64,000 bases of DNA from Flaccisagitta enflata (Eukaryota). Under the pieces are notes generated by a model. That model was not told the DNA's origin. It saw nothing but the letters and a program-made list of their open reading frames with translations, and ran no database searches. How positions within the stretch are numbered: the stretch's first letter is position 1; every line of letters begins with the position of its first letter. The stretch lies in the NCBI GenBank assembly GCA_965153355.1, contig OZ231126.1, forward strand, positions 26,412,001 through 26,476,000, written 5' to 3'. Positions 2 through 30,100 of this stretch are shown here, piece after piece. The position numbers and the translations under genes are program-made.

Positions 2-249
2 CAAAGCCTCTCGTAGATTCATAATCAGTTTCGTGACATTGTTTTTCATGTGATTTCCGGCTAAATCGTCGGCGCCGAGATGAGATTCAGATTCTCCCGG
101 AAGTCTTAGAATCGAATCCGGAAGCAACTTGATCGTCGTCGGGAAAAGGAGGAATCCGTCTTCCTCGTAGATGACATCCCCAACGTTGATGGCGGTGCAA
201 GTCGATGGATGAAGGAACGTTTGGCGTGGAAAGGTGGCGTCGCTGGCAC

Positions 250-342
<93 letters not shown>

Positions 343-751
343 AGGTACTGCTGGTGATGTTGCTATCAAAGGTACTTGTAGTAATGTTGTTATCTTCATT
401 CTTGGCGTTGAAGACTGGCCCGTTGTTGGCGTCGTTATTGTCGGTGTTGATGCTATTGGTGCCGCTATTGTTGTTGTCGATGGCGCTGCAAGTCAATGAA
501 CAAAGAAACGGATTATGTCGGTATGAGACGAAGTTGGTGTCATTTGCGGCGTTTTTGTTCTTGCCAATGTTGCCATTGAAGTTGGCGCTGTGGCAGTCTC
601 CGACGTCGCATTCCCTAGTGGTGTTTGGAATATGGTAAGTTTTGCGGTTTAAGACGTTATTTTCAGAGCAGGGAACGGTCGAGATGAGGTAGAAGGCGAT
701 AATGAAGAATGAGAATACGAAAATTGTCGATGAAACAGTGGAAATACGAGC
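2..751 (-). CDS. Paralog A, main coding exon, 3'-truncated by the window edge; putative secreted or membrane F/Env-like glycoprotein
   Basis: Manual translation is stop-free from 751 to the edge (open from an in-frame ATG at 814): ARISTVSSTIFVFSFFIIAFYLISTVPCSE (signal-like), an Asn-rich region with N30, then TFLHPSTCTAINVGDVIYEEDGFLLFPTTIKLLPDSILRLP. This closely matches TFLHPSTCSAITVNEIIHEEDGFLLFPTTVKLLPDWLQELP of ORF 6771-9041. A polypyrimidine tract and CAG acceptor end at 752. The track omits it because it has no stop codon in the window. Confidence 0.85.
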
Positions 752-1417
752 CTGGGCAGGTTGGGGAATGAATAAAAAAGAATTGAATAAGAAAATTAAT
801 ACAGTGTGATTCATCTCGATTGTTATACGGCATAACTCAAAAAAAGATAATCCATATAAAAAAAAAAGATAATCCAAATCAAAAAAAAAAAATTTGACAG
901 GTAATGGTTTGGCATTTTATTATGGATGTCCAGGACTTTTCAAGAAGATTTTATCCCCTAGATATGCAATGATCCAAAAATCATGCTTTACAAAACCAGT
1001 TGTCTTGTTATTTTGTCAAAAAAAAATTGAGATTGCTCTAATTTTCTAGTAGATTTTAGCATTTGATACCAGATAGGTCTCAAATATAAACTATATCGAT
1101 GTAGTTCATGGTTTAAGTGAGAAAAAATCGCATTTGGATAAAATTTCATGAAAAAAAGGAGAGAAAAATGATCATTTTTAGCATAATTTGCCATAAAGTT
1201 CCTTTTACGCAAAAAGTATCAAAATTTGGTAGAAAAGCCTAAGAAATAATTTATCATAAAATGCCAAGCAGATACTTCTCATATATTTATTTCAGAATTG
1301 AATTATCTCTATCACTTTTTGAGCAATGCTGTCAGTAAATGTTACAGTCGAGCAGCCCTCTTAAAAATGGAGTAGCGGGTAACGCCGCTACTCGGAAGGG
1401 AAGGGGGCATGTTGGAA

Positions 1418-6770: not shown

Positions 6771-9047
6771 TCAACCGCGGGCTCGCTTTCGAAGCCATCT
6801 ATTGTGGAGAATCTGATGGAGTTGCGGTTGTAGGTGATGGTGTTGATTGGGGAGAAAACGGTCAATTGCCATGAACACAACACGCAATGGATAAAAAAGA
6901 AAATTGGCGATGCTAAACCCAGTTAGAGGTGTAACAAGATATTCATCCAAAGTTGACAATGACCAACTACTGACAACAAAAAATATTGAATGATAGTTAC
7001 ATCTTACGGTCCAGAAAAGCGAAGGACTAACTTTGTCAGCGAAAAAAGCCTCAATGAAATAGCAGGCATTATTGTAATGCCGGATCAAGTGGTGATGGAA
7101 ACCACATTGAAACTCAGTAACCTTCAATGGTTTCCAAAGTGGTCGAACAGAATACCCTGTAGTAACATTGTCTTCATCTGGGACCATTTGCTGCCTAATC
7201 TTTTTCAGATGGGCAATTTCCTTCTCACGCTCATGCGCATTGTAAGACGGGCCAGGTTGCTTTGTGGTGTGAGTTGTCTCTTCTTTGAAAGGCAAAAGTA
7301 CCTCATCATGATCGCCAAAAGTGACATTGCTGAAATTGTTATTTTCAATGTGAATACATTGTGAATTCCCGCCTTTTGCTGATTTCTCAAACACAGTATG
7401 GTCTGTACCTTTGTGATCAGTGGCAGTTAAAGTTTGATCGGTAACCAGAAGCAAACCTCGGGATGTAAAAGTCATCTTTCTCTTTGATTGCGAAAGGTCA
7501 GAATTCAGCACAAAGTCGATGTTGCAACTCTGATCAATCTCATTGTCCACCAACGATGATGGATCATCATCAAGAGTCTGTAATAAAGCTCTGGAGCAAT
7601 TCAGCTCTGCCGATTCCTGGCTGTTCTCAAGAATTCCCTGAACATCACAAACCAGTTTGTCCAGGTACCAAACCTGAAAATAACGCCAACGACAGAAATT
7701 TCTCCACATGGGGTGCAACCTATTGATGGGAGACTTAGCCAAGTTAGCAACAAACTCTGAAGAATGCAAATGCCATTTACCAAATTCAGAATGCTTGCGA
7801 CCAAATTCGAGGAAAAGACGCTGCTCAGTTTGGATGTTTGTCCGTTCATCAATTGAAACACCATTTTCCATGAAATATCGATTCACGGTAATGCGCTCAA
7901 TATCCAGTCCCACTGGGGCTTTCTTTAAATTTGGAAGTGTAAAGAGCAGTTTTAATGTCAAAGTTTCCACATCAATTCCCACCACGTAAACATTCAAATC
8001 ATCCTTTGCGCTTTGAAAATAGAGTGATTCTGCAAAGAGGGAATGGGGAAATATCTCTTTGAAGGTTTGCCATTTCTCCAACTGCCGCGGAAGCAAAGCC
8101 GAGAAGTTCCTGTCATCTGATCGCCCTCGACGTGCTTTGCCTCTGCTCAAACTCCGAGGCTCCTTGGCAAAAGTTGAACCCTCTGACAAAGTCTTTATCA
8201 GGATATCAACTATTTGCATGTAATATTTGTTAAGCTCGTGAGCATTCATTTCTTCAAGCAACACTTTCGGTTTATCTGAGAGGTCCTTCAATGCAGAAAA
8301 AAATAGGGACAAGGTCTCGCATGGGGATTGATAATTGCCATGATGATCAAACTCATCAAGGAGCCAATCCATGATTTCTTTGATGTTCTGCTCTTTGCCG
8401 ATTCTTGGCTCAGAAGGCAGACTCAACAAACCCAGCACAGAATTACTCTCCGTTGATATTTCAGCTTGGTAACGAGGGGTAACCAGTCGTAGAAAGTCAT
8501 GAACCATTGAGCTGTTGATGTGAATGCTTTCCACGTCGCCTTTTTCATTAACTTTGGCCGTATCATAGTGGCAAAAGCCATGCATAGGAAATCGCGCCTG
8601 GACAATGGTGTGCTTGTCCTCAGTGACATCCTCCAACATGACATTGTTCGAAGTGTCGTAATTGTGGATGAAGATGCGACTATTGTTTTTGCATTCCAAC
8701 TGTTCTCTGCCTTTGTCGTACCTCTTCACCAAATCACGCAAAATATTTCTGAACGTTGTCGTCATCTCTTGGAGTCTTTCTATGACATTTTCGTCGATAT
8801 CCGGTTGTCGATACTTAAGTTTTTCTGGCAACTCCTGAAGCCAATCCGGGAGCAGCTTCACCGTTGTTGGGAAAAGGAGGAAGCCATCTTCTTCGTGGAT
8901 GATCTCATTGACAGTGATGGCGCTGCATGTTGAAGGATGCAGAAACGTCGCTGGTTGGAAAGCGCCAACTTCAGTGGAAGTGGCGAGGAAGAGGAGGAGA
9001 GCAGGCAGTAAGGCCAGAATATGGCCAAGCGTCAATATCATGAGAGC
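6771..9047 (-). CDS. Paralog B, main coding exon; signal peptide, Cys-containing ectodomain and hydrophobic C-terminus; putative class I fusion (F/Env)-like glycoprotein
   Basis: 756-aa non-repetitive ORF (ATG at 9041) with a hydrophobic N-terminus (MILTLGHILALLPALLLFLATSTEVGA), several NxS/T sequons, a Cys cluster (FCRW...LVCD...LNCSRALL...SCN...QCIH) and a hydrophobic tail. Acceptor ttctcatttag ends at 9048. Coding status is well supported; the family call is by-eye only. Confidence 0.85.
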   Translation of the reverse strand, partial: ALMILTLGHILALLPALLLFLATSTEVGAFQPATFLHPSTCSAITVNEIIHEEDGFLLFPTTVKLLPDWLQELPEKLKYRQPDIDENVIERLQEMTTTFRNILRDLVKRYDKGREQLECKNNSRIFIHNYDTSNNVMLEDVTEDKHTIVQARFPMHGFCHYDTAKVNEKGDVESIHINSSMVHDFLRLVTPRYQAEISTESNSVLGLLSLPSEPRIGKEQNIKEIMDWLLDEFDHHGNYQSPCETLSLFFSALKDLSDKPKVLLEEMNAHELNKYYMQIVDILIKTLSEGSTFAKEPRSLSRGKARRGRSDDRNFSALLPRQLEKWQTFKEIFPHSLFAESLYFQSAKDDLNVYVVGIDVETLTLKLLFTLPNLKKAPVGLDIERITVNRYFMENGVSIDERTNIQTEQRLFLEFGRKHSEFGKWHLHSSEFVANLAKSPINRLHPMWRNFCRWRYFQVWYLDKLVCDVQGILENSQESAELNCSRALLQTLDDDPSSLVDNEIDQSCNIDFVLNSDLSQSKRKMTFTSRGLLLVTDQTLTATDHKGTDHTVFEKSAKGGNSQCIHIENNNFSNVTFGDHDEVLLPFKEETTHTTKQPGPSYNAHEREKEIAHLKKIRQQMVPDEDNVTTGYSVRPLWKPLKVTEFQCGFHHHLIRHYNNACYFIEAFFADKVSPSLFWTVRCNYHSIFFVVSSWSLSTLDEYLVTPLTGFSIANFLFYPLRVVFMAIDRFLPNQHHHLQPQLHQILHNRWLRKRARG

Positions 9048-11146: not shown

Positions 11147-11405
11147 TACTAATTTAGTGTACCTTTATGCGTTAAAGTTGTATGTTTCTTACAAAAAAAA
11201 AACCTCCCACATGGAGTTTCAAATAACTACGTCATGCCACAGAAAAAAGATTAAAAACGTTGAATAAGGACGCGGGGTTATAAAAAAAAAGTAGATTCAA
11301 TCTTGTGTAAGATTGAGTGATAATCAACGCTCATGCTCATCAACGTACAAAATAAAACTTAAAAGAGGATGTATACATCAAATCATCCTACACACGAATC
11401 AAATA

Positions 11406-14373
11406 TCAGACCTTACTTTTGGTCTTCCCATGCTCTGCTTTATGTCTCTGAAACCAATCCTCCTTGCAACACTTGACGCTGCAATAAAGCGTCCTGTCCT
11501 CTACGCTTTTATAGGTATCTTTCTTGCATTTGACGCAAGTGAGGAAAGTGTGAGGCTCCATCTCGACTTTGTTGCAGACTCTGCATTGAGCAATGACGAC
11601 CATCGAGGCTTCATCATCCATCGTCTGAATATCGGATATCTTTGACGCGATTGAACATGGATCTGAGATACCGCTGTCTCGAGAAAAAGATCTGGACCGA
11701 GGCGCTTCCCAAACACGTTTGTCAACAGCACCCTCGTCATCTTGAAGGATTTTCATTGATTTTCCTAGTAAGTCGTTTTCTTTGAAATTAACTGCGAAAG
11801 GGCCTTCAAATGCATTCATGTGCAATGAGGCTTCCTCGTCATTGATTGAAGGACGTGTATTGCCCAAATCAGACAAATTAGTCAAAGACGTCGTAAGGAG
11901 GTCCGGTAGAATCAACATATACTTCTTTTGCGGGCTATTTAGATCACCATTGGATTTGCCCTCTGCATCATTTTGCCTTTCAATTTTGCCTTTAGAAAAG
12001 ACTTTTCGTCTGTTTTTTGTTTTGGACCATTTATGTTTTCTTGTACTGCCAAAACCTCGGAAAACCTTTTCTGGCTTTTTCTTTGACAGCCCCTCGGAAA
12101 AACTATCTATCCATTTGCAAATGGTAGTCACCAACAAGTGAATGGCAACGACGAAACTCCAAAGACATGACGCCAACCAGCAAATGCCATAGAAACCCGC
12201 GGTGAGAATTTGCCAGACATTTCCAATGAACCACACGCAGACGCGGGGAACAAATAAGATGGAAGCGACGATAATATTCAGCGCAGATTTGACTATTTTC
12301 AAAACTATTTTGCATAATTGAACAAACTTGCCAAAAAAGAAGAGCAGAATCCAACACAAAGCGCCTAGACCATATTCGGTGGGCGTTTTGAAAATTGAAA
12401 ATGGGAAATTTTGCATCAACCAAGATTTTGTGACGTCTTTGAGTTTTTTGGCGAGGAATTTTTCAAGTATAGTTTTTAAGTCGCAGTTGATATCTATTGA
12501 GTAGTTGTAAAAATCGATGAATTTGCTAACGCACGCCCAAGGCATCCAAACAGCCAAAAATATGACAATGGCGAGTAAGATTAGTTCAGGAAGAGTAAAG
12601 GATTCAAGAATGGATACTAAACTTGGGCTTGGAACGGAAATTGAACCTAGTCTTGAACCGGGGCTTGAGCCAGTACTTGGACTGGTATTTGCGTCAAGAT
12701 TAAATTTTTGTCTCCGACATGCACCTCGCAAGCACTCAAGGAAGCCTTTTCTCGGCTTTCTCGATCTGATTCCCTGATTGGACTGTTTTGTCATTTCCTG
12801 ATTCCAACTTGAGTAGGACGAGAAGCTGCCTCCCCAACCGCCCGAGTCAATCTTCACACGTTTGTATCTGTCAGAGGACACAAAATGGCATTTCGTTTGG
12901 CCATCATGCGCAGACAATACCTCCGCTGTGGCGTGTTCATGAGTTATTCCAATTATAGTTTCATCGGTGAAAGCCATAAACCCGTTATCCATATTCACCA
13001 AAAAGTGTTGACGACGGTTGTTGTTGCTTATTTCATCTGGATTGCATTTCCATTGTGGCTCTTTTTTATCACTTCTCAACATGTCCAAAGTACATTGCAG
13101 GTCATCTCCTGATCCAATTCCGTCTTCACCCAATCTCCTTTCCATCAGGTTAAAGTCGCAATAAAGCTTTGTGGATTCTAAATCAGACCGATATTGACAA
13201 TATTGCCGAGACAACCATTTTAAATTGACTTGGTCAGAGTTGAGATGCATTTGGAGATAATTTGGGTCAGAAAGTCGTTCATAATTGATGTTATTTGATG
13301 CAGAAAGGTCTACATAGGTCGGAAAACGCAACTTGGTTGACCAGGAATCGATATTCGTTGCTTTGTCGGAAGAATTGTCATTTTGCGTCACCGAATCGTC
13401 CTCTTTTCTGAGTGAATTTCCCGTCAATGAGTCTGTCTTTTCCTCCAAACTCAGCCGACCACCGGGGAAATGTCCTATCCAATCAATTTCCACACCGCGT
13501 GGAGTTTTATCCAGCGCGGGCGTCACGGTCAAATAAGATATCTCGAATCTCTCTAGATCAATGCCTGTCAGAAATGCGGAAGAGTGCTCAATCATGACAT
13601 TCACTTTTTCCATAGCCTCCTCCCCAAGCAGCTTGCCATAATCCAGTCTCGCTTCCAGCTCGATAACAAACTCTTCTATGGGCGAAAGCGTCTCCGCGGT
13701 CAGAGGTGTGTGAGCGTCCAAGGAATTTTCCCAATAGGAAAGCGTTTTGTTCCAGGCTGTAAACATGGAAGTGTGCCCGTCGACGAGGTATTTGATCTCA
13801 ACTATAAACTCGGCCAGATATTCGCCTTTGTGGCTGGTGAGCATCAACGCGGCGTCGGGATTCAGGTCGGCCATATTAAGGTGAATGGTCTCGTCAACAT
13901 TGGAAGGATTCAACACCCAATCTTTGAGATTGTTGATCTTTTGTCGTTTGTTAATGCGAATGGTTTTGTCCATTTCCCACGTGGCAAAGTCCCGGACTTT
14001 ATTGCCACCGCCGTCGCCGCCGCTGCCACGGTTGTTGCTGCTGCTGCCATCGTTGCCGCCGCCGCCGTCGCCGCTGCTTCCACCGCCGCCGCCGCCGCCG
14101 AGGCTGTCATAGATCGGCATTGTATAACGTATAAAATCTCGCCATTTCTCCGGTTTGACGCCGATTTTTGACGGCGTTTGAGGCCTGAAATCGCCGGACG
14201 ATGACGACTTTGGTTTCGGCTCGTCGTAGAAACAACCTAAGATATTGTCCCTGGTAACAATCGACGCCACCAGCGGGTTTTCGCGATGGTGAGTATCGCT
14301 GAATAAGGGATTGTAGTCTTTATTGACGCCAATTACCACTTTTTGCGACGCAGACGTGTCTTCGAATGTGACG

Positions 14374-14465
<92 letters not shown>

Positions 14466-14759
14466 GAATGTTGTTGTTGTTAATGTTGTTGTTGTTAATG
14501 TTGTTGTTGTTAATGTTGTTGTTGTTAATGTTGTTGTTGTTAATGTTGTTGTTGTTAATGTTGTTGTTGTTAATGTTGTTGTTGTTAATGTTGTTGTTGT
14601 TAATGTTGTTGTTGTTAATGTTGTTAATGTTGTTGTTAATGTTGTTAATGTTGTTGTTAATGTTGTTGTTGTTAATGTTGTTGTTGTTAATGTTGTTGTT
14701 GTTAATGTTGTTGTTGTTGTTAATGTTGTTGTTGTTGTTGTTAATGTTGTTGTTGTTAA

Positions 14760-14811
<52 letters not shown>

Positions 14812-15031
14812 GCTGTTGCTTTTATCTTTGAAAACGATTTGGTTTATGTTGTTTACGCGTATTTCATCATGATTCATGCGGCTGATATTTCCATATTCAT
14901 GCCACTTGTAGTCATTGGCATCTAGGCTTGGCAAATCGATTGATTGAAGGCGCAATTTTTTAGCGCTTAAGATATTGAAATTACCGTTGATATCGCTATT
15001 GATGGACATGTTGCTGCTGTTATCACGATCG

Positions 15032-15128
<97 letters not shown>

Positions 15129-15525
15129 AGGCACCGTTCAACTCGGCGGCCACTCTGAAGGAATCGACGAGAAGCAAAAAAGATCTGAGAACTTCTTTCG
15201 TCTTTCTAGCCGTAATTTTTCTCAGTTCGTCGATCAGAATTTGCGGTTGTTCTTCCTTAAAATATTTCATCGGGTTCGCGACGCAAGACGACATCGTATC
15301 ACGCCGTGGCTTCAGATGCATATCGATCAACCAATCGGGAATGAGTTTGAGGACGACGGGACGAATCAAGTATCCATCTTGACTGTAGACGGTTTCTTTA
15401 AGATAGACTTGATGACAATCGTCTTCGGTTAAAGATTCGTGGATTGGAAGTTTGGAGGCGTCGACGACTGAATCGAGGTGAATCGCCGCCAGCAGCAGCA
15501 TCACGCTGATTATCAAGTTCATCAT
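11406..15525 (-). CDS. Paralog C, ~1372 aa after correcting one frameshift: signal peptide, Asn- and Gly-rich inserts, F/Env-like ectodomain, several TM segments, C-terminal MYND-type zinc finger
   Basis: Track ORFs 14320-15618 and 11406-14339 join if the extra G at 14466 is removed (4119 nt, 1373 codons). Start MMNLIISVMLLLAAIHLDSVVDA at 15525. Family motif DCHQVYLKETVYSQDGYLIRPVVLKLIPDWL. Hydrophobic segments include LPELILLAIVIFLAVWMPW, GLGALCWILLFFFG and AGFYGICWLASCLWSFVVAIHLLV. Confidence 0.8.
11430..11590 (-). other. MYND-type zinc finger coding segment
   Basis: CRVCNK...FLTCVKCKK...LYCSVKCCKEDWFQRHKAEH fits the MYND pattern CxxC...CxxC...YCSxxCQxxDWxxHKxxC, with His at the last ligand position. 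Confidence 0.8.
14373..14812. repeat. Coding (GTT)n and (GTT)3-4(AAT) compound microsatellite, poly-Asn/Ile on the minus strand
   Basis: Read directly. Other (GTT)n tracts are at 251-340, ~15031-15126, ~16141-16291 and ~17416-17521. Confidence 0.95.
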
Positions 15526-16216
15526 TTTGATGAGGTTGCGTGTCAGATTGTCATCGATGTAGGCACCTTTTAAGTGGATGATTATTGTTTTCAATGAAAC
15601 AAAAACATTCCGTGTCAATTCTTCTTTAACTTTTCACTTTCATTACGTGAATGGATCTGAAATGCAAAAAGAAGAATTTAGTGGACAAAAGATTGTACCT
15701 ATAATGGAGTACGTTATGACGCCGCTGGCGTTATTAGAGCTGCTGGCGTTGTATGCGCTACTGGCGTCATTATCAACTTCAGTATCCAAACAAGGCCGGA
15801 TACACGGCTACCCAAGTCGCGTGCGGGTGGGCAGGAGGAGTGACAAAAGATAGCTAAATAAGTTGTTTGGAGGGAGCAGTAATGCAAAAATCACCCGCAA
15901 AGGCCAAAAAAGTTAAGAGTTACTAACCAACGGATAGACCGACCAATCAGTGGCAGTGATAAGAAAAGCTAACCAAGCTGATTGGCAGGAGCAGTAATGC
16001 AAAAACCACCCGCAAAGGCCAAAAAAGTTAAGTGTTACTAACCGACGGATAGACCGACCGATCATTGATATTGTTACACTTGCTGTCGTGGTTGTCGACG
16101 TTTTGGATAATGGCGTTATCGTCGTTTTTGTGGATGCTAATGTTGTTGTTGTTTTTGTTGTTATTGTTGTTATTGTTGTTATTGTTGTTATTGTTGTTAT
16201 TGTTGTTATTGTTGTT

Positions 16217-17522: not shown

Positions 17523-18158
17523 TCGATGATGTTTTTGTCGTCGTTGCTGCTTTTGTCATTGTTGTTGCTGTCCTCGTTATCGTGGCCATTATAAGAGTTG
17601 ATGGTAATATTGTCGTTACTGTCATCATTGTTAACGTTGTTGCTGTTGTTGTTGTTGTTGCTGTTGCTGTTGTTATTGTTATTGTTATTGTCCTAAACCG
17701 TCAGAAGTTTGATCGACGTCGGAAAAAGGAGGAAGCCATCCTCGTAAATGACCTCGCGATCGTTGATAGTGTTACAAGTTGACGGATGAAGAAAAGTCTT
17801 GCGACGTAAGTTGGTGTTGTTTGAGGCGTTGTCGTGGCCGCCGGTGTTGGTTGAATTGTTGTTGGCGTTCTTGAAAGTGTTTTCAACGTTGCTGGTGGCG
17901 TTGCTCCCGATGTTCCCGATAGGGTCGAGGTTGGCGTTGAAGTCATCACTGCTGACATTGATGGCGCTACAAGTCAATGGACGAAGTAACGCCTTCCGCG
18001 GGGAAATGGGGTAGTTAGTTGTCTCTCTGAAGTTTTTGCACGCTGAATTACTGTTCGGACGACGTTCAGACAGACAGGCACTGGCAAGCAATTTCAGACC
18101 AGAAGACAGAAAAATGAAAAGATCTGCAAGGACGTAAACAGTACTCCAGCGAAATTAC

Positions 18159-26773: not shown

Positions 26774-27177
26774 TTAAAACATCATCAAAACTCTCATTCC
26801 GAATGTCAATCTGCGATTAAAGCGGACAACAAAATCCATGCAAAAGTAAACGAAAAACATAAAAAAGGCACTGAAAAAAGTAAACAGCAAAAAAGAAATC
26901 CACAAATTCCATGGAAATAACAAAATACACTCTATAGTAAAATTGGCGCGAGGATATCGAGGAGCAAGAATGTATTTCTCTAGAGGTATAAATAATACAT
27001 AAAGATGTATGGAGTAAAAGAGGTAGTTTCTCACAGGCCAAAGTAGCGGTGGTTGCACTCTTTTGGTCAGCCAAGCGTCGTAATCATACCAATATCTACT
27101 GTAAATACGATCGATTGAGTACATAATATGCTCCTCAAATTCAGCTACTTTTTTTGGTCTCCGAAGCGGTTCAATTA
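26774..27177 (-). pseudogene. Paralog E, C-terminal membrane-proximal fragment abutting the satellite array
   Basis: EPLRRPKKVAEFEEHIMYSIDRIY...AWLTKRVQPPLLWPVRNY...PLEKYILAP...FTIECILLFPW aligns with the paralog B C-terminus RPLWKPLKVTEFQCGFHHHLIRHY...AFFADKVSPSLFWTVRCNY...TLDEYLVTP...FSIANFLFYPL. Confidence 0.7.
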
Positions 27178-30100
27178 GGGGTGTAGAATAGAGGGAGAAC
27201 CATGTTCTTTCCCTAACTTTAAGATGATATCTACACATCAACCAATACTTTTGAAACCTAGTGAGAGGGTCTGTTCATAGTTTAGGATGTGAGTGAACAC
27301 ATCATGAAAAAAAAACTGAACATTTTTCAATCATATGGCCGTACGGCCTCTCGACAAGGAAAGCCTGGAATTTTTAAGCAAATCCCCTCAATTTTCAAAG
27401 GCCAATTTGACTGACTTAAACCTAATAGGAAAGCTTGAGATTGAACATAAGAACATCCATGCTACAACACGGCGGATCAATATCAAAATTTCAAAGATCA
27501 GGCCTGGTAAATTTTCAGGATTAAGGAGCGAAAAGTGAATGTAGTGATATAGCATATACCCTTTTTTCACTCCAAACGCTTCAAAATCCTAATAGGTTAA
27601 CCATTTTGGAGGTTTTTTTGCTCTGAGCGCTTCCTCTTAATGTTTACTTTGGAAGAGTTTACCACAAGAAAATAGATCCCGCAAAAAATTCAAATTTAAG
27701 CGCTCAAACAACTGTGACTCAGTTGCGGCATGATTCTCCGGTAGTCTACGCCCTTTATAAGGGGGTTTTTTCAGCATTTTGGGTGGTTTGTCTATGGTAA
27801 TGGATAGTCAAGAAGGGGAAATGACACTAGGAAAAAAATTGGGTCAAAAAGTTCAATCGTTTTGGAAATATAAGCGTTTTTATCTTTTTAAGATGTGATA
27901 TATAATATATCATATGAAATATAGGTTACAATGAGTTTTTTTAGCATTTTGGGTGGTTGGTCAATGGTAATGGATAGTGCTCAGGAAAAAATAACATTAG
28001 AAAAAAGAATCAGGTCAAAAAACTGATTTTTTCTTAAGTTAGAAGCGATTTTTGCCTTTTTATAATATGATATTTATAAGTAAGAATGGACATGCTTAAT
28101 CAATGAATATTGACTTTAAAATTAAAAATTTGAGTTATCTGAGTCCAAACCATCATAATTCAGTAAGACCAAAGATAGATTTGCAAATTTAAAGGAAAAC
28201 AAACACCCTAATGTTTATGTAGAGTCACCTGTTTTTTTCAGCATTTTGGGTGGTTTGTCTATGGTAATGGATAGTCAAGAAGGGGAAATGACACTAGGAA
28301 AAAAAATTGGGTCAAAAAGTTCAATCGTTTTGAAATATAAGCGTTTTTGTCTTTTTAAGATGTGATATATAATATATCATATGAAATATAGGTTACAATG
28401 AGTTTTTTTAGCATTTTGGGTGGTTGGTCAATGGTAATGGATAGTGCACAGGAAAAAATGACATTAGAAAAAAGAATCAGGTCAAAAAACTGATTTTTTC
28501 TTAAGTTAGAAGCGATTTTTGCCTTTTTATAATATGATATTTATAATTAATAATGGACATGCTTAATCAATGAATATTGACTTTAAAATTGAAAATTTGA
28601 GTTATCTGAGTCCAAACCAGCATAATTCAGTAAGACCAAAGATAGATTAGCAAATTTAAAGGAAAACAAACACCCTAATGTTTATGTAGAGTCACCTGTT
28701 TTAAAGGGTGTAGAATAGAGGGAGAACCATGTTCTTTCCCTAACTTTAAGATGATATCTACGCATCAACCAATACTTTTGAAACCTAGTGAGAGGGTCTG
28801 TTCATAGTTTAGGATGTGAGTGAACACATCATGAAAAAAAACTGAACATTTTTCAATCATATGGCCGTACGGCCTCTCGACAAGGAAAGCCTGGAATTTT
28901 TAAGCAAATCCCCTCAATTTTCAAAGGCCAATTTGACTGACTTAAACCTAATAGGAAAGCTTGAGATTGAACATAAGAACATCCATGCTACAACACGGCG
29001 GATCAATATCAAAATTTCAAAGATCAGGCCTGGTAAATTTTCAGGATTAAGGAGCGAAAAGTGAATGTAGTGATATAGCATATACCCTTTTTTCACTCCA
29101 AACGCTTCAAAATCCTAATAGGTTAACCATTTTGGAGGTTTTTTTTGCTCTGAGCGCTTCCTCTTAATGTTTACTTTGGAAGAGTCTACCACAAGAAAAT
29201 AGATCCCGCAAAAAAATTCAAATTTAAGCGCTCAAACAACTGTGACTCAGTTGCGGCATGATTCTCCGGTAGTCTACGCCCTTTATAAGGGGGGTTTTTT
29301 CAGCATTTTGGGTGGTTTGTCTATGGTAATGGATAGTCAAGAAGGGGAAATGACACTAGGAAAAAAATTGGGTCAAAAAGTTCAATCGTTTTGGAAATAT
29401 AAGCGTTTTTATCTTTTTAAGATGTGATATATAATATATCATATGAAATATAGGTTACAATGAGTTTTTTTAGCATTTTGGGTGGTTGGTCAATGGTAAT
29501 GGATAGTGCTCAGGAAAAAATAACATTAGGAAAAAGAATCAGGTCAAAAAACTGATTTTTTCTTAAGTTAGAAGCGATTTTTGCCTTTTTATAATATGAT
29601 ATTTATAAGTAAGAATGGACATGCTTAATCAATGAATATTGACTTTAAAATTGAAAATTTGAGTTATCTGAGTCCAAACCATCATAATTCAGTAAGACCA
29701 AAGATAGATTTGCAAATTTAAAGGAAAACAAACACCCTAATGTTTATGTAGAGTCACCTGTTTTATTTTTTTCAGCATTTTGGGTGGTTTGTCTATGGTA
29801 ATGGATAGTCAAGAAGGGGAAATGACACTAGGAAAAAAAATTGGGTCAAAAAGTTCAATCGTTTTGGAAATATAAGCGTTTTTGTCTTTTTAAGATGTGA
29901 TATATAATATATCATATGAAATATAGGTTACAATGGGTTTTTTTAGCATTTTGGGTGGTTGGTCAATGGCAATGGATAGTGCACAGGAAAAAATGACATT
30001 AGAAAAAAGAATCAGGTCAAAAAACTGATTTTTTCTTAAGTTAGAAGCGATTTTTGCCTTTTTATAATATGATATTTATAATCAATAATGGACATGCTTA

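Follow-up and report, generated by a model that had tools for sequence, protein, structure and literature searches.

The gene under study lies on the minus strand of the window, by which we mean the whole stretch of 64,000 nt that was analysed, on contig C1 of a 794-Mb genome assembled in 9 contigs. Its main part is a single stop-free frame of 1145 codons (11406–14843), the translation of which comprises, in this order, a Cys-containing ectodomain, four hydrophobic windows, a basic stretch and a terminal zinc finger (Table 1). Six core Cys residues are found in the ectodomain, whose core spans 12882–13571, and the hydrophobic segments are 19-residue Kyte-Doolittle (KD) windows with values of 1.93–2.66. 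The earlier note had described such an uninterrupted succession of Cys-rich region, hydrophobic segments, basic linker and MYND motif, and our analysis confirms it, with the same layout in three intact paralogs; the span it assigned (11406..13600) holds for this layout but not for the extent of the gene, since the signal peptide lies beyond it, at 15457–15525.

Table 1. Features of the window gene and of its relatives in the window (positions count from the first letter of the window; KD, Kyte-Doolittle value).
Feature	Position	Strand	Evidence or remark
Paralog A, N-terminal piece, short tail	2..916	-	continues left of the window (L009:7161-9998)
Paralog B	6771..9047	-	frame intact, ectodomain of the same family, tail short, finger absent
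Stop codon	11406..11408	-	
MYND-type zinc finger, C6H2 (six Cys, two His)	11430..11585	-	Pfam zf-MYND, ligand alignment
Start of basic linker	11976..12083	-	residue charge count
Three more hydrophobic segments	12312-12368, 12225-12281, 12129-12185 (within 12129..12368)	-	KD 1.93, 2.16, 2.19
First transmembrane segment, strongest	12528..12584	-	KD 2.66
Ectodomain region	12882..14339	-	hhalign to short-tail paralogs, env profile score, feature scans
AAC microsatellite, poly-Asn coding	14373..14818	.	junction of upstream and downstream reading frames
Ectodomain N-terminal part (first strand and helix, F2-like)	15130..15444	-	in frame 14320-15633
Start codon and signal-peptide-like hydrophobic N-terminus	15457..15525	-	translation; aligns with N-termini of L007, L009, L011
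Splice-acceptor-like site CATTTCAG and pyrimidine tract	15657..15676	-	~130 nt 5' of ATG
Paralog D, N-terminal fragment	17693..18154	-	family HMM E 1.5e-7
Paralog E, short-tail fragment (tail only)	26774..27274	-	family HMM E 9.5e-15

The signal peptide and the first part of the ectodomain are encoded in a separate frame (14320–15633), in which the piece 14860–15525 exhibits 61% identity to the ectodomain of paralog L009 (alignment A3; family HMM E 2e-36). Both frames meet inside the AAC microsatellite, so the window copy is broken as assembled, across a repeat too long for short reads to span; in-frame poly-Asn tracts are present at the equivalent place in paralogs L007, L009 and L011. The gene was covered in 29/30 and 30/30 bins in two DNA runs, one of them possibly the source sample, and the runs that contain it include marine metagenomes.

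The search of the genome with the ectodomain core returned 5 places, and intact finger-bearing single frames were identified at L007 (1292 codons), L009 (1024 codons) and, on contig C9, L011 (1117 codons), each with a signal peptide, an ectodomain, a hydrophobic region and the finger. The recurrence of the layout in these three frames argues that it did not arise by chance, and a fortuitous MYND match was rejected as well, as was an assembly chimera, given the four independent copies of the layout and the coverage in the two DNA runs above. Another locus on C3, L014, is 97–99% identical to L011, but is broken and ends at an assembly gap. An exon of a DEG/ENaC channel (Pfam ASC) lies near the C9 copy (L012:2152-3087(-)).

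The C-terminus varies within the family, as had been anticipated from the short tails of paralogs B and E: the ectodomains of the short-tail and the finger-bearing subfamilies are homologous (hhalign probability 96.5%, E 7e-10, 375 columns), and when the profiles of both tail types were compared, the probability came to 0.3%, on which homology between the tails was rejected. Each subfamily forms a branch in the tree with support of 100/99, and the two group together at 85/79, subject to a long-branch warning. The search of the genome with the short-tail subfamily gave 8 matches, and the HMM scan of the fetched loci placed, between 26.388 and 26.519 Mb of C1, at least 9 short-tail and at least 3 finger-bearing copies, all on the minus strand; copy counts (about 14 overall) are lower bounds for a genome covered by sequence searches and the HMM scan of fetched loci. 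Among the nine short-tail copies on C1 two have intact frames (B and L031) and the other 7 carry breaks as assembled here. Two proteins from the databases, P0002 and P0008, are continuous across the breaks of genomic copies near-identical to them (91–98% identity), so that some of the breaks are haplotype- or assembly-specific; introns were rejected as an explanation for the breaks they cross, which are insertions or indels with ends other than GT-AG. The family seems to turn over by birth and death, with alleles both broken and whole. The gene cluster is split by a tandem array (unit ~1.54 kb, window positions 27300–64000), which begins just upstream of the tail of paralog E.

Outside this genome, a full HMMER scan with paralog B as the query gave 6 matches, all of them ENA fragments. 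Of these, P0002, P0003, P0005 and P0007 are 87–98% identical to copies in the genome. P0004 and P0011 are family members ~31% identical to the cluster genes, a close copy of which was not found in the genome, and perhaps come from a related species. The word-index search found no outside homologs, the Atlas provided no usable match for ectodomain or tail, and neither PDB sequences nor viral contigs gave any match, although such blanks do not prove absence.

No env or F family of Pfam matches the family proteins, and the affinity of the ectodomain was addressed by fold recognition and profile comparison. With an AlphaFold2 model of the short-tail paralog L031 (pLDDT 49.9, pTM 0.41) as the query, all 38 PDB entries listed by Foldseek were F proteins of RSV, hMPV or henipavirus type (best E 5.7e-4, with low TM-scores), and a search independent of Foldseek placed F or foamy-virus Env in 9 of its top 9 rows (best Z 8.1, 184 aligned residues, rmsd 4.5), the first unrelated row having Z 6.2. 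The VIA comparison superimposed residues 57–606 of the model on residues 46–427 of F, colinear over the head (Z 8.5, 248 aligned, rmsd 9.2). These Z values are moderate, and the fold evidence lies in the consistency of the F matches. The F fold, predicted on the low-confidence L031 model, is extended to the window gene through profile homology; the model of the finger-bearing L009 is poor (pLDDT 37.2) and yielded no significant viral match.

A weak match to Fusion_gly of Pfam in the genome turned out to be an env-like frame, and the search with that frame led to 10 places. Long pol-like frames lie upstream on the same strand at 6 of the 9 newly fetched env places (L116, L119–L123), and in the two pol frames scanned we identified RT, RNase H and integrase domains (L116, directly upstream of env) and integrase domains (L121). 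L121 and L122 are near-identical pol-env copies on different contigs. The hhalign comparison of the profile of 7 env frames with the whole family gave a probability of 97% (E 1e-10, 205 columns), with the short-tail profile 93%, and with the finger subfamily alone 66% (E 5.5e-5). The window frame scored 9.5 bits against the env profile, compared with 1.4 for the best of 200 shuffles and at most 2.9 for 20 unrelated proteins, and 5 of 5 family proteins outscored all 200 of their own shuffles as well as all 20 unrelated controls. The virus-type ectodomain proposed in the earlier note is thus upheld by sequence and model comparisons, and can be narrowed down to a predicted F-type env related to the envs of LTR retrotransposons of the same genome.

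Two further intact F-type env frames (L102:7479-9266(+), C1 79.81 Mb, and L115:6846-8624(+), C1 106.80 Mb) carry an inserted kringle ahead of the cleavage site (Pfam E 1e-24 and 1e-20), with the fusion peptide kept; they are ~40% alike, and a pol frame is absent from 14 kb and 6.8 kb upstream, respectively. Judging by these domain matches, the kringle-env is a second chimera of an env and a host domain in this genome; the literature search found nothing on such a combination. Downstream of the first kringle-env lies a 910-codon frame, L103:1270-3999(+), to which no name was assigned.

The terminal MYND motif of the window gene was corroborated by Pfam, as a C6H2 variant: zf-MYND matches the finger alone with 27.2 bits (E 4e-6), over the curated cut-off of 22.7, and the whole frame with 20.2 bits (E 6e-4), under it. 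The classical MYND pattern is C4-C2HC, with Cys as the eighth ligand. Here the last ligand is His instead of the classical Cys in 31 of 31 extracted fingers, as in the zf-C6H2 of METAP1, and all eight ligands are invariant in 11 of 11 aligned fingers. Among PDB sequences, the finger profile best matches the METAP1 C6H2 and the MYND fingers of CBFA2T1/ETO and DEAF1 (E 0.007–0.08). Related fingers gave at least 60 matches in the genome, and the full frames read from this finger family (15/15) are long, single-frame and soluble; the sequence comparisons support the derivation of the finger from this expanded host family. Long single-frame soluble helical proteins with a C-terminal C6H2 finger form tandem clusters at L087–L099 (C1, C2, C5, C6, C8) and elsewhere, with only low-complexity Pfam matches beyond the finger. 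Many of them terminate in MCEVE or MCDVE, endings that we take to recall the MEEVD tail of Hsp90.

One finger of a membrane-protein locus on C9, L041/L082, falls into a group with the four fingers linked to env (support 100/99). At L082:3052-5945(+) (C9 52.22 Mb) a gap of 155 bases separates a membrane-protein frame from the frame behind it, whose finger is the nearest to those linked to env, and no env-like part is present in ~18 kb upstream of this finger. The locus is a possible donor or recipient of the finger; homology of its membrane-protein tail to the env-linked tail was rejected (best E 0.02). As no finger occurs in the envs or in the short-tail subfamily, the simplest order of gains that can be suggested on an unrooted tree would be env capture, duplication, and then gain of the tail and finger in one branch.

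An R-x-K/R-R furin site with a hydrophobic peptide behind it (KD 1.64–2.31) is present in 5 of the 8 env rows from the same genome, the remaining three comprising two without the N-terminal part and one with KKKR, while the same scan identified a furin site with a hydrophobic fusion peptide in 0 of 10 family pieces (best KD 0.77). The loss of both makes it most likely that the ectodomain binds rather than fuses. In a functional F-type fusogen a heptad-repeat stalk would precede one membrane segment; here the ectodomain has more than one hydrophobic segment behind it, and the distance from the last head Cys to the first of them is 39–52 residues in the 3 intact copies and, in the window copy, 102 Gly/Ser/Pro-rich residues. 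RT, RNase H and integrase domains of Pfam were absent from 34 flanking ORFs (32 of the 56 listed, after family pieces and antisense frames had been dropped, and 2 from L018), pol domains were absent from the long ORFs listed around the copies, and no LTR-like direct repeat pair was found in the flanks (up to 3.5 kb) of 5 of 5 genes. Env homology without a retroelement context, a criterion of Iris-type genes, is what these searches revealed. Frame L084:4496-5209(-), which resembles the end of a non-LTR element, and the gag-like frame L086:8752-9858(-) have no Pfam match.

Across the four finger-bearing paralogs dN/dS is below 0.5 in 6 of 6 regions, with 0.11–0.40 in the ectodomain (pairs with finite dS); outside the finger, the most conserved part of these genes (68–90% identity, dN/dS 0.06–0.18), silent sites have come close to saturation. 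At the level of codon comparison these values demonstrate past purifying selection on the family. The finger-coding DNA of L007 (6104–6250) and L009 (3376–3522) is identical at 138 of 147 positions despite the saturation of silent sites elsewhere, which likely reflects gene conversion. The 3 aligned finger-bearing paralogs of contig C1 all share CATTTCAG and several 5'-leader blocks without change, and the in-frame stops in the leader of two of these three copies imply that the constraint is non-coding; in the C9 copy L011 the splice-acceptor-like site is absent within the 260 nt shown.

We give about an even chance to the proposal that these genes constitute a host family domesticated from an F-type env of an LTR retrotransposon, non-fusogenic, with a gained tail and finger, and serving in binding and coupling. 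The topology, expression, binding and defence role that we infer would fit together as follows. An F-type env of an LTR retrotransposon would have become a host gene family, in which retention of the F head fold and loss of the furin site and fusion peptide would most likely leave binding without fusion; after duplication, one subfamily would have acquired the membrane helices, the basic linker and the C6H2 MYND finger of the host family. The signal peptide would route the protein to the secretory pathway, with the head exposed on the outside or in the lumen of the ER, and the finger, held in the cytosol, would bind a peptide motif of a partner, MYND fingers being protein-interaction domains according to the available part of PMC9304006. 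As a decoy, the head could occupy the receptor of env-bearing retroelements or viruses, or join their envelope trimers, and the finger could link the decoy to trafficking, degradation or signalling. Such a use in defence against env-bearing retroelements or viruses falls somewhat short of an even chance; it is our first choice because of the env-bearing elements in the genome, the fast turnover of the family, and the precedents of Fv4, Rmcf and suppressyn. More tentatively, the env head could be a signalling receptor or sensor, in which the cytosolic MYND finger would report the binding of a ligand or of an invading envelope, with the short-tail paralogs as decoys or co-receptors. A receptor-like role, as the earlier note had proposed, is plausible.

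The main rival assumes the same origin and layout but a job in host cell recognition (gamete, self/non-self or adhesion), with the variable env head as the recognition surface and the finger as the shared signalling output. It would account for a tandem array of 12 copies with divergent heads on one strand of C1, for the 3' end of the L007 and L009 coding regions (final 150 nt, with the 138/147 identity given above), which looks as if the finger had been homogenised, and the absence from the bulk RNA run described below is consistent with the narrow expression it would require. However, the many broken copies suit turnover under conflict equally well or better than a core function, and we consider this job rather unlikely.

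Doubtful as well, and more so, is the possibility that the family was once functional and is now decaying, with the window copy as a pseudogene. The window copy itself would agree with it: besides the frame break and the zero RNA reads, there is a 7-base deletion at 12847 in one other DNA run (X2), and the differences listed within its frame in other DNA runs comprise 24 replacement and 9 silent ones (n=33, among 40 listed of 118), close to the neutral expectation of 21% for the silent share, so its polymorphism looks near neutral. The 7 broken copies among 9 short-tail ones in the assembly point in the same direction. Against decay of the family speak the intact frames of ~3 kb or longer in three finger-bearing paralogs, the database proteins that read through the breaks of two broken copies to which they are 91–98% identical, and the conserved non-coding leader.

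For the origin alone, a free virus (of Mononegavirales or a large DNA virus) could be considered as the donor in place of a retrotransposon env. The best BFVD matches of the L031 model are glycoproteins of a lispivirus, a fish filovirus, a baculovirus (F) and a xinmovirus (best E 3.7e-6), and long stems (support 85/79) part the family from the envs in the tree. BFVD, however, contains viral proteins and no retrotransposon envs, the family matches the envs of its own genome directly in profile comparison, and F-type envs, their furin site and fusion peptide conserved, occur widely among invertebrate Ty3/gypsy elements according to PMC13524379, all of which renders a free-virus donor unlikely. 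Searches of the genome with Baculo_F, Gypsy and Mononeg_RNA_pol of Pfam gave nothing useful, and their controls matched nowhere either.

As to the topology of the domesticated env that we propose, the signal peptide would place the env-like head outside. Within 50 residues past the first segment there are 8–11 K/R in 3 of 4 copies (8 in the window copy, vs 1 in the 30 residues before), and within 45 residues past the last one, counted in the window copy, L011 and L009, the window copy has 16 K/R vs 4 D/E and L011 has 18 K/R; L009, with few K/R, is without a basic stretch behind its last hydrophobic run. Because of these basic residues past the first and last segments, the charge bias favours a cytosolic finger, with one later segment lying along the membrane or in a hairpin. 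Four hydrophobic segments are an even number if all of them cross the membrane, which would suit a finger that is lumenal in the mature protein, or else the finger may be cleaved off or spliced out, and no transcript was seen in the polyA run; but the basic residues in the window copy and L011, the lack of any strong splice donor from the last segment to the finger, the absence of AATAAA inside the frame past its first 400 nt, and the preservation of all eight ligands make a non-cytosolic finger improbable. The polyA RNA run of the same study had 0 true reads on 11150–14365 in 12.2 million records, which amount to 6% of one run (one read corresponds to ~0.03 RPKM), in a scan that covered the window gene alone, with no positive-control gene beside it. 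No RNA dataset containing the gene is listed among the indexed runs, and run X7, whose RNA status is a guess, has three contigs on the gene that were not counted as expression.

A retained, syncytin-like cell-cell fusogen is very improbable, since the F head fold and the basic R-K-R motifs that 3 of the 4 finger-bearing copies share at one aligned position of the ectodomain are countered by the absence of a hydrophobic peptide behind every R-x-K/R-R site in the 10 pieces, by an ectodomain KD maximum of 1.0–1.21 in the finger subfamily, and by Pro and Gly runs at the expected place of the refolding helix.

An env or F ectodomain joined to a MYND finger was not found in the full-text literature, a search with most subscription papers outside its scope. 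As far as the available parts of the cited papers go, domesticated envs keep or lose parts of the viral layout and either fuse cells or block receptors, whereas here the env head appears to have gained an intracellular host interaction domain, the part held tightest by selection. If the protein is made, this would be a route from a viral entry protein to a host receptor or sensor, and if the receptor reading is true, then, together with the kringle-envs, it would mean repeated building of receptors from env parts in one genome. Related retrotransposons with an env, the sister subfamily without a finger and the host family of the finger all occur in this genome, which so offers the comparison.

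Each of the known systems shares some of the features of this family. The finger resembles METAP1 zf-C6H2 and the MYND fingers of CBFA2T1/ETO and DEAF1 in sequence and ligand pattern, but those are soluble enzymes and transcription cofactors, while here the finger ends a predicted membrane protein with a virus-type ectodomain. The paramyxovirus and pneumovirus F proteins share the order and fold of the head domains with the L031 model, but at 8–14% identity, and here the gene would be a host gene and the fusion peptide is absent. The F-type Env of Ty3/gypsy errantiviruses (available part of PMC13524379; L116, L119–L123) shares the signal peptide, the F head fold and profile homology; the present copies differ in being without gag-pol, LTRs, furin site and fusion peptide, and in their multi-segment membrane part, joined to a finger in one subfamily. 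Fv4, Rmcf and suppressyn, described in the accessible parts of PMC1262188 and PMC13709493 as env-derived receptor blockers, agree with our working model in being env-derived and in binding rather than fusing, but they come from vertebrate retroviral Env of another type, with no intracellular host domain reported in those parts. A close likeness is offered by Drosophila Iris (CG4715), which, according to the available part of PMC1262188, is a host gene derived from the env of an F-type retroelement, with a signal peptide and a membrane anchor; it has lost the furin site and the fusion peptide and has undergone tandem duplication into copies with different tails, whose conserved residues were proposed to serve in anchoring or signalling. 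The same source describes a single membrane segment, a short tail, no added host domain and demonstrated expression for Iris, whereas the present family, known from genes alone, counts about 14 copies and adds a folded zinc finger to several hydrophobic segments. On the sequence criteria tested, the family matches the domesticated envs of the Iris type, to which the finger and the multi-segment tail would be new.
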